This document shows positions 19,826-33,074 of a stretch of DNA of 64,000 nucleotides, piece by piece. The stretch lies in sequence record ON528734. One strand, 5' to 3'. Position 1 is the stretch's first letter. Every line of letters begins with the position of its first letter. The position numbers and the translations under genes are program-made. The stretch comes from Shigella phage ESh24. The notes beneath the pieces were generated by a model. The model saw only the letters and a program-made list of their open reading frames with translations, was not told where the DNA came from and searched no databases.

Positions 19826-20041
19826 ATGAACGAAGCTCTTATTAACGATTTACGTCTTGCCGGATATGAAGTAAATACAAACGGCAATGGTTTAACTCAA
19901 ATTGAAGGAAATGGATTCATCCTTGAGTATGAATTTAGCCAATGGTGGTTATATGCTAATTACGGCGAATTAATTAAATATGTTGACCAATTTGATTCAC
20001 TAGATGCAGCTCTTGGAGCGGCTAAGCTAATGAATGCTTGA
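19826..20041 (+). CDS. hypothetical protein (71 aa)
   Basis: ORF. Confidence 0.5.
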   Translation: MNEALINDLRLAGYEVNTNGNGLTQIEGNGFILEYEFSQWWLYANYGELIKYVDQFDSLDAALGAAKLMNA

Positions 20042-20123
20042 AATTGATTCATCCTCTATGCTTTAAGATAGATCTTCAAATATTATGATATAATAGATCT
20101 ATGAATTGAGCTAAGAGGTGAAA

Positions 20124-24276: not shown

Positions 24277-24463
24277 CGTTAACGATGAATTCATAGCAAA
24301 TATTGATTATACCGAAGAAGATTCTAGATATGTTGGAATAATTTATATTACATCAAAAACAGCACAAGGTGTTGTTTGCATGGCTGAATTTGATGAATAC
24401 TTTTTAGATTATGATGATATGATAGAATGGTCTAAAAGATACATTAAAAGGAATCTTTTGTGA
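24200..24463 (+). CDS. hypothetical protein (start uncertain; overlaps upstream ORF by 77 nt)
   Basis: ORF ending at 46 start. Confidence 0.4.
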   Translation: MTHLNHYEIWLYLVLRMHTVKFSTFDVNDEFIANIDYTEEDSRYVGIIYITSKTAQGVVCMAEFDEYFLDYDDMIEWSKRYIKRNLL

Positions 24464-26142
24464 AGAATTTTAAACTAAACCGAGTTAGGTATCAAAATAT
24501 AATGTCAGTAGGTGGAAATCCTATTGACATTCAATTAGATAAGGTTCAAAAAACTCTTATTACTGGACGAAATGGCGGTGGTAAGTCTACTATGTTAGAA
24601 GCCATCACATTTGGGCTTTTTGGCAAGCCATTTCGTGATGTAAAGAAAGGTCAATTAATAAACAGCACAAATAAGAAAGAACTTTTAGTTGAACTGTGGA
24701 TGGAATATGATGAGAAAAAGTACTATATCAAAAGAGGACAAAAACCAAACGTTTTCGAAATCACCGTTAACGGTACACGTCTTAATGAATCTGCCAGCAG
24801 TAAAGATTTCCAAGCAGAATTTGAACAGCTTATCGGAATGTCATATGCCAGTTTCAAGCAGATTGTTGTCCTTGGTACAGCAGGGTATACCCCTTTCATG
24901 GGTTTGTCGACCCCTGCACGAAGAAAGCTTGTGGAAGACCTGCTTGAGGTAGGAACATTAGCTGAAATGGATAAGCTTAATAAAGCACTAATACGTGAAT
25001 TAAATTCACAAAACCAAGTGCTTGATGTTAAAAAAGATAGTATTATCCAACAAATTAAAATATATAATGATAATGTTGAACGTCAGAAAAAATTAACGGG
25101 TGACAACCTTACTCGTCTTCAAAATATGTATGATGATTTGGCAAAAGAAGCTAGAACGCTAAAATCGGAAATAGAAGAAGCTAATGAAAGATTAGTTAAT
25201 ATTGTTTTGGATGAAGACCCGACTGATGCATTTAATAAAATCGGTCAAGAAGCATTTTTAATTAAATCAAAAATTGACTCGTATAATAAAGTCATTAACA
25301 TGTATCACGAAGGTGGATTATGTCCAACCTGCTTGTCACAATTAAGTTCCGGTGATAAAGTTGTTTCTAAAATTAAAGATAAAGTTTCTGAATGTACGCA
25401 TTCATTTGAACAGCTTTCAACACACCGTGATAATTTAAAAGTTCTTGTTGACGAATACCGAGATAATATTAAAACCCAGCAGTCGTTGGCAAATGATATT
25501 CGCAATAAAAAGCAATCTCTAATCACGACGGTAGATAAAGCTAAAAAAGTTAAAGCAGCTATAGAAAAAGCATCTTCTGAGTTTATTGACCATGCTGATG
25601 AAATAGCACTGCTTCAAGAAGAACTTGATAAAATTGTTAAGACAAAAACTAATTTAGTAATGGAAAAATACCACCGAGGAATTTTGACTGATATGCTCAA
25701 AGATTCTGGTATTAAAGGTGCTATTATTAAAAAGTACATTCCATTATTTAATAAGCAGATTAACCATTATCTTAAAATAATGGAAGCGGATTATGTGTTT
25801 ACATTAGATGAAGAATTTAATGAGACAATTAAATCCCGTGGTCGTGAAGATTTTAGTTATGCTTCATTTAGTGAAGGCGAAAAAGCGCGAATTGATATTG
25901 CTCTTTTATTTACTTGGCGTGATATTGCTTCTATTGTATCTGGTGTTAGTATTAGTACATTAATACTCGATGAAGTGTTTGATGGGTCATTTGATGCCGA
26001 AGGTATTAAAGGTGTAGCTAATATTATAAATTCAATGAAAAACACTAATGTTTTTATAATTTCGCATAAAGACCATGACCCGCAAGAATATGGTCAGCAT
26101 CTTCAAATGAAGAAAGTTGGTCGATTTACTGTAATGGTTTAA
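24460..26142 (+). CDS. 46: recombination ATPase subunit gp46 (Rad50/SbcC-like)
   Basis: 560 aa; Walker A GRNGGGKST, CPTC zinc hook in coiled coil, Walker B LILDEVFDG. Confidence 0.93.
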   Translation: MKNFKLNRVRYQNIMSVGGNPIDIQLDKVQKTLITGRNGGGKSTMLEAITFGLFGKPFRDVKKGQLINSTNKKELLVELWMEYDEKKYYIKRGQKPNVFEITVNGTRLNESASSKDFQAEFEQLIGMSYASFKQIVVLGTAGYTPFMGLSTPARRKLVEDLLEVGTLAEMDKLNKALIRELNSQNQVLDVKKDSIIQQIKIYNDNVERQKKLTGDNLTRLQNMYDDLAKEARTLKSEIEEANERLVNIVLDEDPTDAFNKIGQEAFLIKSKIDSYNKVINMYHEGGLCPTCLSQLSSGDKVVSKIKDKVSECTHSFEQLSTHRDNLKVLVDEYRDNIKTQQSLANDIRNKKQSLITTVDKAKKVKAAIEKASSEFIDHADEIALLQEELDKIVKTKTNLVMEKYHRGILTDMLKDSGIKGAIIKKYIPLFNKQINHYLKIMEADYVFTLDEEFNETIKSRGREDFSYASFSEGEKARIDIALLFTWRDIASIVSGVSISTLILDEVFDGSFDAEGIKGVANIINSMKNTNVFIISHKDHDPQEYGQHLQMKKVGRFTVMV

Positions 26143-26197
26143 TTTATAAGAGATTATGCTTTAATTTATTAGAGTATAATCTCTGTGGAGGAAAAAC

Positions 26198-26386
26198 ATG
26201 GAATATTCAACTGGACAGCATCTATTAACTTTTCCTGAAATAAAACGATATATTCTGAGAAATAATTTTTCTAATGAAGAGCATATAGTTACTGAATCTA
26301 TGCTTAGGAATGCATTTAAAGCAGAATATACAAAAATAATGTCCAATAGAAATGAAGCTTGGACTGTTACTGATTATTATGACTAA
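26198..26386 (+). CDS. hypothetical protein (62 aa)
   Basis: GGAGG RBS. Confidence 0.5.
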   Translation: MEYSTGQHLLTFPEIKRYILRNNFSNEEHIVTESMLRNAFKAEYTKIMSNRNEAWTVTDYYD

Positions 26387-26395
26387 AGGTGTATT

Positions 26396-26785
26396 ATGAC
26401 TAAAATTACCGTGAATTATACTGTTGATGTAAAAGATATTCAGCCAAAACACGTGCGTTCTGAATCAAATCCACAAAACCAAAATAAAATTCGTCGAGCA
26501 TGGGTTTTGTCTCTTTCTGATAACGCAATGGAAGTTATTCAGAACAAAATTAAATCTGCACCTGCTCGTCATGCGTATTATGAAGCTATCGATCGTGAAG
26601 TAAGTAATAAATGGATTGAACTAATGCGCAAACATACTACAGAATCCCTAAACGCTGGTGCTAAATTTATTATGACTTCATGCGGTGAACGTCTTGAAGA
26701 TGATTATTGCGGTAATGCAGATGAACGTCTAATTGTTGCTGCTCAAATTGTTGCGGAAACAATTGTGGCCGAGTTTAATAAATGA
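26396..26785 (+). CDS. rpbA: RNA polymerase binding protein RpbA
   Basis: 129 aa; position between 46 and 45. Confidence 0.8.
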
Positions 26786-27670
26786 ATTTAGTATATCTTA
26801 TTAGCTTTCCAGAGCGGGAAGCTAAAAATATTTTTCCGTGTTATTATATAGGTTCAAAAATTAACGCAATTTTCGATGGAACAAATATAATTGATTCAGC
26901 TGGAAAGATTTATACTGGAAGCGTGTCATCGAGTTATAGTGATGAATATTTTGAGCTTATTAAAACCACTAAATATACCGTCAAAATTTTAGCTGAAACT
27001 ATATTAGATCCAAGAAAATTGGAAAGATTTTTTTCAATTAAAAGTTAAAGCAAAAAGCAATATAAAATATTTTAATAAAGCATACGCAGATGAAAATACT
27101 TTAATTGGCGCTAAAGGATATGGAACATATAAAAATGTTTTAACTGGAAAAATTGTAAAGCTTTCGCAATCTGAAATTACGCCCGATTATGTTGGTATTC
27201 GTAAAGGTTACAAACATAGTTCTGACGTAAAATATAAAATATCTAATTCAATGAAGAATCACTGGACCGATGAGAAAAAGCTTAAACTTTCAAATAAGAT
27301 GAAATTGAAATATCTTGATTGTAGTTATGCTAAAAAGTTTAGTGATATAATGAATTCAGAAAGTGTAAGATCAAAAATTTCTAAATCTCAAAAAGAGTTA
27401 TGGAATAATGCTGAAAGAAGACAGAGAGCTTCAATTCAAGCAACTGTTAGAAATAATTTACCGGAATTCAAATCAAAATTTAGAAAATCTAAAGCTAGAG
27501 GAACTTGGATTGAACATGAAGATGAATTAAAAACTTTATGGCATGCTTACGGAAAACCGAGTTATAATAAATTTCGTAAAATTGCAGTAGCTAATGGGTT
27601 TAACGACGAATCTTATCAGGGTGCTGTACGGTCCTGGTCTAACTATTATGTAAATAGGAAATTGAAATGA
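26782..27670 (+). pseudogene. seg-like GIY-YIG homing endonuclease gene split by a +1 frame change (parts 26782-27048 and 27008-27670)
   Basis: N part VYLIS...YYIGS (GIY-YIG-like); downstream frame has three NUMOD3-like repeats (GYKHSSDVKYKIS, TDEKKLKLSNKMK, SESVRSKISKSQKELW); frames meet at T7 run 27028-27034. Confidence 0.5.
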
Positions 27671-28353
27671 AATTATCTAAAGACACACTGAATATTTTGA
27701 AAAATTTCGCTACTATTAACTCCGGTATTATGCTTAAATCTGGTCAATTTATTATGACTCGCGCAGTTAATGGTACAACTTATGCGGAAGCAAATATTTC
27801 TGACGTTATTGATTTTGATGTAGCAATTTACGATTTGAACGGTTTTCTCGGTATTCTGTCTTTAGTTAATGATGATGCAGAAATTTCCCAGTCAGAAGAT
27901 GGAAATATTAAAATTGCTGATGCCCGCTCAACAATTTTTTGGCCAGCAGCCGATCCGAGTACAGTAGTTGCTCCTAATAAACCAATTCCATTCCCGGTAG
28001 CATCTGTTGTTACTGAAATTAAAGCTGAAGACCTTCAACAGCTGTTGCGTGTATCTCGTGGTCTGCAGATTGATACAATTGCTATCACGGTAAAAGAAGG
28101 TAAAATCGTAATTAACGGTTTTAATAAAGTAGAAGATTCTGCTCTGACCCGCGTTAAATATTCTTTGACTCTTGGTGATTATGATGGTGAAAATACATTT
28201 AATTTCATTATCAATATGGCAAATATGAAAATGCAACCAGGAAATTATAAACTTCTGCTCTGGGCAAAAGGTAAACAAGGTGCTGCTAAATTTGAAGGTG
28301 AACACGCGAATTATGTAGTAGCTCTTGAAGCTGATTCTACCCACGATTTTTAA
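27667..28353 (+). CDS. 45: sliding clamp gp45
   Basis: 228 aa; matches T4 gp45 (MKLSKDTLNILKNFATINSGIML...). Confidence 0.95.
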   Translation: MKLSKDTLNILKNFATINSGIMLKSGQFIMTRAVNGTTYAEANISDVIDFDVAIYDLNGFLGILSLVNDDAEISQSEDGNIKIADARSTIFWPAADPSTVVAPNKPIPFPVASVVTEIKAEDLQQLLRVSRGLQIDTIAITVKEGKIVINGFNKVEDSALTRVKYSLTLGDYDGENTFNFIINMANMKMQPGNYKLLLWAKGKQGAAKFEGEHANYVVALEADSTHDF

Positions 28354-28355
28354 TA

Positions 28356-28376
28356 GAGGGCTTCGGCCCTTTATAA
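28356..28376 (+). terminator. RNA hairpin / terminator (AGGGC-UUCG-GCCCT)
   Basis: UUCG tetraloop hairpin. Confidence 0.65.
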
Positions 28377-28404
28377 TTTACACTAAAACTTGAATGAGGA
28401 AATT

Positions 28405-29364
28405 ATGATTACCGTAAATGAAAAAGAACACATTCTTGAACAGAAATATCGTCCATCTACTATCGATGAATGTATTCTTCCCGCCTTTGATAAAGAAACC
28501 TTTAAATCTATTACAAGTAAAGGTAAAATTCCACATATTATTCTTCATTCTCCTTCTCCAGGAACAGGTAAAACAACTGTAGCGAAAGCATTGTGTCATG
28601 ATGTAAATGCTGATATGATGTTTGTGAATGGATCAGATTGTAAAATTGATTTCGTTCGTGGTCCTTTGACTAATTTTGCCAGCGCCGCTTCATTTGATGG
28701 TCGTCAAAAAGTAATCGTTATTGATGAATTTGACCGCTCAGGATTAGCAGAGTCTCAGCGACATCTTCGCTCCTTTATGGAAGCTTATAGTTCAAACTGT
28801 AGTATTATTATTACTGCTAACAATATTGATGGTATTATTAAACCACTTCAGTCACGCTGTCGAGTTATTACATTCGGTCAACCGACCGATGAAGATAAAA
28901 TTGAAATGATGAAGCAGATGATTCGTCGATTGACTGAAATCTGTAAACATGAAGGTATTGCTATAGCTGATATGAAAGTTGTAGCAGCTTTGGTTAAAAA
29001 GAATTTTCCTGATTTTCGTAAAACTATTGGCGAGCTCGATAGTTATTCATCTAAAGGTGTTTTGGATGCTGGTATTTTATCACTGGTTACTAACGATCGT
29101 GGTGCTATTGATGATGTTCTTGAGTCTCTCAAAAATAAAGATGTTAAACAACTCAGAGCTTTAGCACCAAAATATGCAGCCGATTATTCGTGGTTCGTTG
29201 GTAAACTTGCCGAAGAAATCTATACACGTGTAACACCACAGAGTATTATTCGTATGTACGAAATTGTCGGCGAAAATAATCAGTATCATGGTATTGCAGC
29301 TAATATTGAATTGCATCTAGCTTATCTTTTCATTCAGTTAGCATGTGAAATGCAGTGGAAGTGA
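28405..29364 (+). CDS. 44: clamp loader large subunit gp44
   Basis: 319 aa; Walker [11 protein letters not shown], Walker [12 protein letters not shown] motif. Confidence 0.95.
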
Positions 29365-30377: not shown

Positions 30378-33074
30378 ATGAAAGAATTTTATATCTCTAT
30401 CGAAACAGTCGGAAATAACATTGTTGAACGTTATATTGATGAAAACGGAAAGGAACGTACTCGTGAAGTAGAATATCTTCCAACTATGTTTAGGCATTGT
30501 AAGGAAGAGTCAAAGTACAAAGACATCTATGGCAAAAATTGTGCTCCTCAAAAATTTCCATCAATGAAAGATGCTCGAGATTGGATGAAACGAATGGAAG
30601 ACATCGGTCTCGAAGCTCTCGGTATGAACGATTTTAAACTCGCTTATATCAGTGATACATACGGTTCAGAAATTGTTTATGACCGAAAATTTGTTCGTGT
30701 AGCTAACTGTGACATTGAGGTTACTGGCGATAAATTTCCTGACCCAATGAAAGCTGAATATGAAATTGATGCTATTACTCATTACGATTCAATTGATGAT
30801 CGTTTTTATGTTTTCGACCTTTTGAATTCAATGTATGGTTCAGTATCAAAATGGGATGCAAAGTTAGCTGCTAAGCTTGACTGTGAAGGTGGTGATGAAG
30901 TTCCTCAAGAAATTCTTGACCGAGTAATTTATATGCCATTCGATAATGAGCGTGATATGCTCATGGAATATATCAATCTCTGGGAACAGAAACGACCTGC
31001 TATTTTTACTGGTTGGAATATTGAGGGATTTGACGTTCCGTATATCATGAATCGCGTTAAAATGGTTCTCGGTGAACGTAGTATGAAACGCTTCTCTCCA
31101 ATCGGTCGAGTAAAATCTAAACTTATCCAAAATATGTACGGTAGCAAAGAAATTTATTCTATTGATGGCGTATCTGTTCTTGATTATTTAGATTTGTATA
31201 AGAAATTCGCATTTACTAATTTGCCGTCATTCTCTTTGGAATCAGTTGCTCAACATGAAACCAAAAAAGGTAAATTACCATACGATGGTCCTATTAATAA
31301 ACTTCGTGAGACTAATCATCAACGATATATCAGTTATAACATCATTGACGTAGAATCAGTTCAAGCAATTGATAAAATTCGCGGGTTTATCGATCTAGTT
31401 TTAAGTATGTCTTATTACGCTAAAATGCCTTTTTCCGGTGTAATGAGTCCTATTAAAACCTGGGATGCTATTATTTTTAACTCATTGAAAGGTGAACATA
31501 AGGTTATTCCTCAACAAGGTTCGCATGTTAAACAGAGTTTTCCGGGTGCATTTGTGTTTGAACCTAAACCAATTGCTCGTCGATATATTATGAGTTTTGA
31601 CTTGACGTCTCTGTATCCGAGCATTATTCGTCAGGTTAACATTAGTCCTGAGACTATTCGTGGTCAGTTTAAAGTTCATCCAATTCATGAATATATTGCA
31701 GGAACAGCTCCTAAACCGAGTGATGAATATTCTTGTTCTCCGAATGGATGGATGTATGATAAGCATCAAGAAGGTATCATTCCAAAGGAAATCGCTAAAG
31801 TATTTTTCCAGCGTAAAGACTGGAAAAAGAAAATGTTCGCTGAAGAAATGAATGCCGAAGCTATTAAAAAGATTATTATGAAAGGCGCAGGATCTTGTTC
31901 AACTAAACCAGAAGTTGAACGATATGTTAAGTTCAGTGATGATTTCTTAAATGAACTATCGAATTATACTGAATCTGTTCTCAATAGTTTGATTGAAGAG
32001 TGTGAAAAAGCAGCTACACTTGCTAACACAAATCAGCTGAACCGTAAAATTCTTATTAACAGTCTTTACGGTGCTCTTGGTAATATTCATTTCCGTTACT
32101 ATGATTTGCGAAATGCTACTGCTATCACAATTTTCGGCCAAGTTGGTATTCAGTGGATTGCTCGTAAAATTAATGAATATCTGAATAAAGTATGCGGAAC
32201 TAATGGCGAAGATTTCATTGCAGCAGGTGATACTGATTCGGTATATGTTTGTGTAGATAAAGTTATTGAAAAAGTCGGTCTTGACCGATTCAAAGAGCAG
32301 AACGATTTGGTTGAATTTATGAATCAGTTCGGTAAGAAAAAGATGGAACCTATGATTGATGTTGCATATCGTGAGTTATGTGATTATATGAATAACCGCG
32401 AGCATCTGATGCATATGGATCGTGAAGCTATTTCTTGCCCTCCGCTTGGTTCAAAGGGTGTTGGTGGATTTTGGAAAGCGAAAAAGCGTTATGCTCTGAA
32501 CGTTTATGATATGGAAGATAAGCGATTTGCTGAACCGCATCTAAAAATCATGGGTATGGAAACTCAGCAAAGTTCAACGCCTAAAGCGGTCCAAGAAGCT
32601 CTTGAAGAAAGTATCCGTCGTATTCTTCAAGAAGGCGAAGAGTCTGTTCAAGAATATTATAAGAACTTTGAGAAAGAATATCGTCAACTTGACTATAAAG
32701 TTATTGCTGAAGTAAAAACTGCGAACGATATAGCGAAATATGATGATAAAGGTTGGCCAGGATTTAAATGTCCGTTCCATATTCGTGGTGTGCTAACTTA
32801 TCGTCGAGCTGTTAGCGGTTTAGGTGTAGCTCCAATTTTGGATGGAAATAAAGTAATGGTTCTTCCATTACGTGAAGGAAATCCATTTGGTGACAAATGC
32901 ATTGCTTGGCCGTCGGGCACAGAACTTCCAAAAGAAATTCGTTCTGACGTACTGTCTTGGATTGACTACTCAACCTTGTTCCAAAAATCGTTTGTTAAAC
33001 CGCTTGCAGGCATGTGTGAATCGGCTGGTATGGACTATGAAGAAAAAGCTTCGTTAGACTTCCTGTTTGGCTGA
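30378..33074 (+). CDS. 43: DNA polymerase gp43 (family B, with 3'-5' exonuclease)
   Basis: 898 aa; exo motif CDIEV, pol motifs DLTSLYPS and YGDTDS-like AAGDTDS. Confidence 0.97.
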   Translation: MKEFYISIETVGNNIVERYIDENGKERTREVEYLPTMFRHCKEESKYKDIYGKNCAPQKFPSMKDARDWMKRMEDIGLEALGMNDFKLAYISDTYGSEIVYDRKFVRVANCDIEVTGDKFPDPMKAEYEIDAITHYDSIDDRFYVFDLLNSMYGSVSKWDAKLAAKLDCEGGDEVPQEILDRVIYMPFDNERDMLMEYINLWEQKRPAIFTGWNIEGFDVPYIMNRVKMVLGERSMKRFSPIGRVKSKLIQNMYGSKEIYSIDGVSVLDYLDLYKKFAFTNLPSFSLESVAQHETKKGKLPYDGPINKLRETNHQRYISYNIIDVESVQAIDKIRGFIDLVLSMSYYAKMPFSGVMSPIKTWDAIIFNSLKGEHKVIPQQGSHVKQSFPGAFVFEPKPIARRYIMSFDLTSLYPSIIRQVNISPETIRGQFKVHPIHEYIAGTAPKPSDEYSCSPNGWMYDKHQEGIIPKEIAKVFFQRKDWKKKMFAEEMNAEAIKKIIMKGAGSCSTKPEVERYVKFSDDFLNELSNYTESVLNSLIEECEKAATLANTNQLNRKILINSLYGALGNIHFRYYDLRNATAITIFGQVGIQWIARKINEYLNKVCGTNGEDFIAAGDTDSVYVCVDKVIEKVGLDRFKEQNDLVEFMNQFGKKKMEPMIDVAYRELCDYMNNREHLMHMDREAISCPPLGSKGVGGFWKAKKRYALNVYDMEDKRFAEPHLKIMGMETQQSSTPKAVQEALEESIRRILQEGEESVQEYYKNFEKEYRQLDYKVIAEVKTANDIAKYDDKGWPGFKCPFHIRGVLTYRRAVSGLGVAPILDGNKVMVLPLREGNPFGDKCIAWPSGTELPKEIRSDVLSWIDYSTLFQKSFVKPLAGMCESAGMDYEEKASLDFLFG

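Follow-up and report, generated by a model that had tools for sequence, protein, structure and literature searches.

A homing endonuclease gene of the SegG branch, split by a single extra T, was identified between the genes rpbA and 45 in Shigella phage ESh24 (sequence record ON528734). The analyzed stretch, hereafter the window, comprises 64,000 nucleotides (64 kb) and is a segment of a T4-like (Tequatrovirus) genome. The local gene order is 46 (24460-26142), 45.2 (26198-26386), rpbA (26396-26785), the endonuclease locus and gene 45, encoding the sliding clamp (27667-28353), followed by 44, 62 and regA; all features of the locus and its flanks lie on the + strand. The flanking genes were identified from annotated relatives and from Pfam families matched on a near-identical Logan contig. 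The extra T is probably a genuine and very recent inactivating mutation, one of many independent dead-end losses of a selfish gene. Ordinary gene loss or a sequencing slip accounts for the locus, and no new mechanism is involved.

The locus contains two reading frames. The 5' open reading frame (26782-27048) encodes an 88-aa product (MNLVYLISF...YYIGS...ERFFSIKS*) that contains most of the predicted GIY-YIG catalytic domain and ends at a premature TAA stop codon (27046-27048). The +1 frame (27008-27670), which encodes the remainder of the endonuclease, opens after a TAG at 27005-27007 and ends at a TGA stop codon (27668-27670). The first ATG, GTG or TTG of this frame lies at 27251, and its sole ATG-initiated open reading frame (27251-27670) encodes 139 aa, the DNA-binding half only. 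The two frames overlap at a run of seven T (T7, 27028-27034), one of only three homopolymers of at least seven in the window. A first-pass annotation, made from the sequence, had reported both open reading frames, the start at 27251, the T7 run and three repeat peptides in the +1 frame, and all of these are present as described.

Deletion of one T yields an open reading frame of 888 nt encoding 295 aa. Direct alignment showed six T (T6), encoding F83-F84, in SholemSchwarzbard, bov9_1 and a Logan contig. The repaired protein was recovered uninterrupted by tblastn, as a single piece with 98-99% identity, in 22 records. Because the relatives have T6 and an uninterrupted open reading frame, the region between rpbA and 45 constitutes one gene interrupted by an additional T, which bears out the earlier proposal of a frameshift at the T run. 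E81 is encoded in the first open reading frame and N98 in the shifted frame; the extra T shifts the frame two codons past E81, and the product ends at residue 88 with the loss of N98, the linker and all DNA-binding elements. The 88-aa stub is almost certainly inactive, since it is predicted to lack the conserved Asn and all of the DNA-binding modules. No active endonuclease would be expected from the T7 allele, save by rare spontaneous slippage. The window copy differs from that of bov9_1 by two amino acids and shows no sign of decay beyond the extra T. An exact look-up of the 88-aa product gave no match in the public assemblies searched, and exact-pattern scans of IMG/VR and JGI metagenomes matched neither the T7 nor the T6 allele.

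The assignment of the repaired protein to a family of homing endonucleases is based on several searches. PHROG 655 ('homing endonuclease') matches the protein end to end (E = 2e-32), and PHROG 7504 matches residues 1-103. The alignment of the conceptual fusion with T4 SegG, proposed in the first-pass annotation, gave 40% identity over 103 aa (residues 1-103) with a pairwise E value of 1e-16 (BLASTP), and the SegG match in the phage collection had an E value of 3e-9 (tblastn). An exhaustive profile search of 1.84 billion proteins found 243 matching cluster representatives. The invariant residues in a 15-member family alignment are Y5 (codon 26794-26796), Y22, I23 and G24 (26845-26853), S25, Y44 and S47 (Y44-T-G-S47, 26911-26922), E81 (27022-27024) and N98 (27074-27076, in the +1 frame). 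Both the GIY (VY5LIS) and YIG (Y21-Y22-I23-G24-S25) motifs are present, and the structural model has strands at residues 2-8 and 21-26. By alignment, the invariant residues match the GIY, YIG, catalytic Glu and Asn positions of the GIY-YIG superfamily, with E81 as the candidate catalytic Glu. These results agree with the earlier description of a seg-like GIY-YIG homing endonuclease between rpbA and 45. In I-TevI, the catalytic Glu is E75, the conserved Asn (N90) lies about 15 residues further on, and a conserved Arg (R27) follows the YIG motif. Between the YIG motif and E81 of the family, the 15-sequence alignment contains no invariant Arg; K26 and Y44-x-G-S47 are conserved.

An AlphaFold2 model of a 98%-identical homologue has an N-terminal domain with a pLDDT of 85-93, a series of helices and a three-helix C-terminal domain, and the N-terminal domain was accepted as having the alpha/beta GIY-YIG fold. 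The alignment and the model together point to a layout of a GIY-YIG domain (approximately residues 1-103), a conserved beta linker (27119-27196), degenerate NUMOD3-type helical repeats (27206-27256, 27260-27298 and 27353-27400) and a C-terminal three-helix domain (27509-27637). Pfam GIY-YIG (PF01541) gave no match to the repaired protein at E values up to 10. T4 SegG has no Pfam match either, and the Pfam test is uninformative for the SegG branch because this proven member is also unmatched. Searches of the repaired protein against Pfam and NCBIfam returned only sub-threshold matches to NUMOD3 and DUF7132. No GIY-YIG structure was found among PDB sequences by HMMER, either with the single protein or with the family profile, and a Foldseek search of the full-length model against the PDB gave nothing significant.

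Three NUMOD3-like DNA-binding repeats had been described in the first-pass annotation. NUMOD3 (PF07460) scores 10.2 bits (E = 0.78) on the full-length protein and 16.1 bits (E = 0.011) on the isolated segment, compared with a Pfam gathering threshold of 20.4 bits, and the first repeat alone contributes to the match. Genuine NUMOD3 is carried by homologues, as nine of the 15 family members match it in the aligned region (best E = 2.9e-13). The NUMOD3 character of the three repeats in the window protein is weakly supported.

Paralogues with a SegG-like N-terminal domain (35-43% identity) were observed at several other intergenic sites of T4-like phages, Proteus, Enterobacter and Vibrio phages among them, including sites beside the endonuclease VII gene 49 and beside gp59. 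A separate match, covering C-terminal residues 232-290 only, lies near the head completion gene of PHB13. Sequence matches of this kind suggest domain shuffling inside this endonuclease family.

SegG is an experimentally confirmed free-standing GIY-YIG endonuclease (PMC2988022). It is encoded by gene 32.1 of T4, between genes 59 and 32, and its approximately 100 N-terminal residues, which are 40% identical to those of the rpbA/45 protein, share with it MN-VY, YYIGSK, the Y-x-x-S motif, VKI, ER--QL-V-A and YFN--YA. Both genes are free-standing and promoter-less, immediately precede an essential replication gene, are oriented like their neighbours, and displace the promoter region of the downstream gene (PMC2988022). 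The two differ in site (59/32 versus rpbA/45) and in length (211 versus 295 aa), and the C-terminal half of the rpbA/45 protein, with its NUMOD3-like repeats and three-helix domain, is unrelated to that of SegG. The promoters of gene 32 lie inside segG, whereas no embedded MotA-type promoter was found in the rpbA/45 gene. The activity and marker exclusion of SegG are experimentally demonstrated, whereas those of the rpbA/45 protein are putative.

I-TevI, which is encoded in the T4 td intron (catalytic domain, PDB 1LN0), resembles the rpbA/45 protein in its arrangement of a GIY-YIG domain, a linker, NUMOD3-type helices and a C-terminal helical DNA-binding domain. The comparison with I-TevI that the first-pass annotation had also proposed detected no sequence similarity, by HMMER (with the family profile) against the PDB or through Pfam GIY-YIG. 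Unlike the intron-encoded I-TevI, the rpbA/45 gene is free-standing, and its product has an insertion of approximately 25 residues after the YIG motif, no zinc finger and no identified equivalent of R27. Genes likewise split by one frameshift into a nuclease and a DNA-binding open reading frame are T4 mobA (annotated as 'defective'), I-TevIII and ICP1 gp115/gp116, whose presence also varies by isolate and whose breaks recur (PMC10448857). Compared with these, the rpbA/45 copy is broken by one base and is otherwise undecayed, and the locus shows many independent young breaks in at least three genera. The T4 segA, segF, mobB, mobC, I-TevII and beta-glucosyltransferase open reading frames had no tblastn match in the window (T4 1-50000 compared). 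Judged by these comparisons, the phage carries a different set of mobile endonucleases from T4.

The distribution of the gene was examined by megablast of 26396-27700, and the cross-genome comparison recommended in the first-pass annotation revealed a sporadic insert. The gene rpbA is common to 502 Tequatrovirus records, 24 of which, representing 20 distinct phages, contain the 888-nt insert; about 478 of the 502, T4 included, are without it. In 23 of the 24 insert-carrying records the match falls one base short of the query; 22 of the 24 have an intact gene of 888 nt with T6. In T4 and e11/2, just a 55-bp spacer separates rpbA from 45. The insert replaces this spacer precisely and occurs sporadically among close relatives, as expected of a seg-type insertion. 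It had been suggested that the small T4 genes 45.1 and 45.2 could be remnants of the endonuclease gene. This is contradicted by T4 itself, where only the 55-bp spacer is present and 45.2 lies upstream of rpbA. Gene 45.2 is a separate conserved gene that is present with or without the endonuclease gene and is unchanged at 26198-26386 in the window.

Orthologues at the rpbA/45 site occur in Mosigvirus (AV109 and others), Gaprivervirus (TH15, VR26) and two metagenomic lineages; those of Mosigvirus, Gaprivervirus and one metagenomic lineage are in a single frame with 55-60% identity. The insertion site upstream of the sliding-clamp gene is occupied in at least five T4-like lineages. Record annotations of the gene vary among 'homing endonuclease', 'hypothetical protein' and none. 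The intact 295-aa open reading frame is unannotated in GiZh (KT184311/NC_054903) and ESh34 (ON528744), and in VR26 (KP007362) the gene is annotated from an internal start (CDS 556-1188 of the VR26 segment used, 210 aa), although tblastn aligns residues 1-295 in one piece; all three cases are gaps in the public annotation. A literature search found no paper on an endonuclease between rpbA and gene 45, and the site is not in the list of T4 endonuclease genes (PMC2988022). By its sequence, the rpbA/45 endonuclease is an uncharacterized yet already machine-annotated member of the SegG branch of the free-standing GIY-YIG type.

The spacer between rpbA and 45 in T4 (NC_000866.4, 32604-32658, between 45 at 32603 and rpbA at 32659) holds the middle promoter P45, with a start at 32626 (PMC2988021). 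No MotA box or TATAAATA late promoter was found inside the endonuclease gene. The nearest recognizable promoter for rpbA, the endonuclease gene and 45 is a MotA-box middle promoter (ATGCTTTA, 11 nt, TATAAT; 26155-26185) upstream of 45.2, equivalent to T4 P45.2 (PMC2988021). Since the P45 spacer is replaced and no promoter was found inside the insert, gene 45 in the carriers is probably expressed by read-through from the P45.2-like promoter. The endonuclease gene is joined to both neighbours by ATGA overlaps: the rpbA TGA stop codon overlaps the endonuclease ATG at 26782-26785, and the endonuclease stop codon overlaps the gene 45 ATG at 27667-27670. A search of 26000-28500 against Rfam gave no match. 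A terminator-like candidate, a 10-bp stem-loop followed by AAATATTTTT, lies at 26801-26825, 20 nt into the endonuclease open reading frame; it folds with an unremarkable energy (z = -1.3), is not retained in AV109 and was rejected. The corresponding position in TH15 is occupied by another hairpin, which is stronger (z = -3.7).

The sequences flanking the insert are also variant. In the carrier phages, thirteen substitutions relative to T4 are present within 27 nt of gene 45 (27673-27699, codons 3-11), which change TTAL of gp45 to TLNI, and the last approximately 20 nt of rpbA differ from the alleles without the endonuclease gene. The patch in the 5' end of gene 45 was considered as a signature of the target or of immunity. 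Identity with the window across the initial 124 nt of gene 45 reaches 95% or more in at least 45 gene-less GenBank records, and HY03 and ERS-1 retain the T4-type spacer, yet have variant gene 45 codons 8-11. The candidate is weakened by these gene-less phages, which carry much of the patch; as it also occurs in phages without the gene, it is not diagnostic. Either cleavage-resistant empty alleles or an older polymorphism could explain HY03 and ERS-1.

Elsewhere, the orthologous gene at the rpbA/45 site is disrupted by at least seven further independent indels, most of which fall in runs of five to seven A. These are a C added after a T5 run in EC121, A5 to A4 in Logan ERR11570814, A6 to A7 in JM17 (apparently in FL18 too), A7 to A11 (+4A) in AV115, A7 to A6 in G2285, A5 to A4 in AV111 and a one-base deletion in Logan SRR9703290. 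JM17, AV115, G2285 and AV111 belong to Mosigvirus, in which the gene is disrupted in five of 10 records. The disrupted copies are otherwise 99.6-99.9% identical to intact ones, and the EC121 copy is, apart from its indel, identical to an intact copy. Among frame-repaired Tequatrovirus copies, dN/dS is 0.06-0.14, which points to strong purifying selection over time. Such low values combined with recurrent breaks are consistent with young pseudogenes, each a dead end, of a selfish element that is otherwise under selection. Phage homing endonuclease genes with frameshifts have been described as typical (PMC10448857), and the homing-cycle idea has been described (PMC2988022). That cycle predicts long purifying selection accompanied by many very young independent breaks, a pattern to which these sequences correspond.

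In the favoured explanation, a free-standing SegG-type GIY-YIG gene is inserted precisely between rpbA and 45, in place of the 55-bp spacer of T4. By analogy with SegG, a phage lacking the gene would, on co-infection, have its rpbA/45 region cut by the intact enzyme and would then acquire the gene through recombinational repair. Selection on endonuclease function would act only while the gene spreads into empty genomes and not in carrier lineages. The extra T in the T6 run would then have produced the 88-aa stub without DNA-binding modules. A genuine mutation is favoured as the probable origin of T7 over a miscall, because no other window-specific frameshift was seen in 66 conserved open reading frames and breaks recur in this gene elsewhere.

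The second reading, less probable although by no means far-fetched, is a sequencing or assembly artefact in which the true sequence has T6, the gene encodes an intact, functional 295-aa SegG-like protein and the seventh T is a homopolymer miscall. The sole defect is indeed a single base, and the run that contains it is among the three longest homopolymers of the window; the remainder matches intact copies at 98-99% identity, all changes being synonymous or conservative, and the 88-aa product is missing from the public assemblies searched. An otherwise undecayed copy would be expected from an error and from a very young mutation alike. However, no window-specific frameshift was found at 71 other runs of six or in 66 conserved open reading frames (66 of the 73 matched T4 open reading frames keep one frame across 90% or more of their length). 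Independent indels are also present in the same 890-bp gene in at least seven assemblies from different laboratories and platforms with the flanking essential genes intact, and the +4 insertion of AV115 is unlikely to be a miscall. The earlier alternatives of a decaying gene and of a sequencing indel both stand. The one two-frame case among the matched open reading frames, gene 55.1 (19826-20085), was observed to have the C-terminus of gp55.1 in another frame relative to T4, ending at 20040; it is a lineage variant and not an assembly fault, because a variant of the same length occurs in BCH953P4 and FL12.

Three further readings give the T7 run or the split products a function. It is highly improbable that the homopolymer runs (T6, A5, A6 and A7) are mutational on/off switches or sites of low-level +1 slippage, with T7 as a reversible 'off' state and the gene body kept as the upstream expression context of gene 45. 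Regulated recoding, in which T7 would be a site of programmed +1 ribosomal frameshifting or transcriptional slippage giving a low yield of full-length endonuclease, is extremely unlikely. A tRNA-Phe on UUU would re-pair perfectly one base downstream in U7, with +1 as the productive direction, but the A-site codon is UCA, which is neither slow nor a stop, and no conserved stimulatory structure was seen. Seven U are fewer than the run length required for appreciable slippage by Escherichia coli RNA polymerase. Very low expression is usual for homing endonucleases (PMC2988022). The slippage regulation raised in the first-pass annotation is nevertheless not supported, because the relatives are in frame: 22 close relatives (T6) and orthologues of four other lineages (T6 or a different sequence) have a single frame, and the shifts of the other broken alleles vary in both position and direction. 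Least credible is a pair of separately functional proteins, the 88-aa N-terminal fragment and the 139-aa DNA-binding fragment, the latter of which might regulate gene 45 or protect the target site as a site-specific binder: the DNA-binding domain of I-TevI acts as an autorepressor, the 139-aa open reading frame starts with an ATG and runs into the ATGA shared with gene 45, and an identical product results from a different upstream frameshift in Logan ERR11570814 (contig ERR11570814_134), but no Shine-Dalgarno-like sequence lies upstream of 27251, the Logan product simply begins at the first in-frame ATG after any early frameshift, and no fragment pair is conserved, because the split points vary among phages.

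For annotation, the two open reading frames should be merged into one SegG-like GIY-YIG homing endonuclease entry, marked as a frameshifted pseudogene, or as intact if the run is T6. If the switch reading were true, a costly nuclease would be silenced yet could be re-activated, or would be leaked in traces. If the enzyme is active, its target would lie close to the 5' end of gene 45 or to the rpbA 3' end and would represent a new Seg specificity, and it could account for localized marker exclusion around gene 45 in T-even crosses. With inactivating mutation as the preferred reading, the recurrence of independent breaks across genera is the only mildly notable aspect, and the locus is a natural example of the life cycle of phage homing endonucleases, with at least eight independent, very young disruptions.
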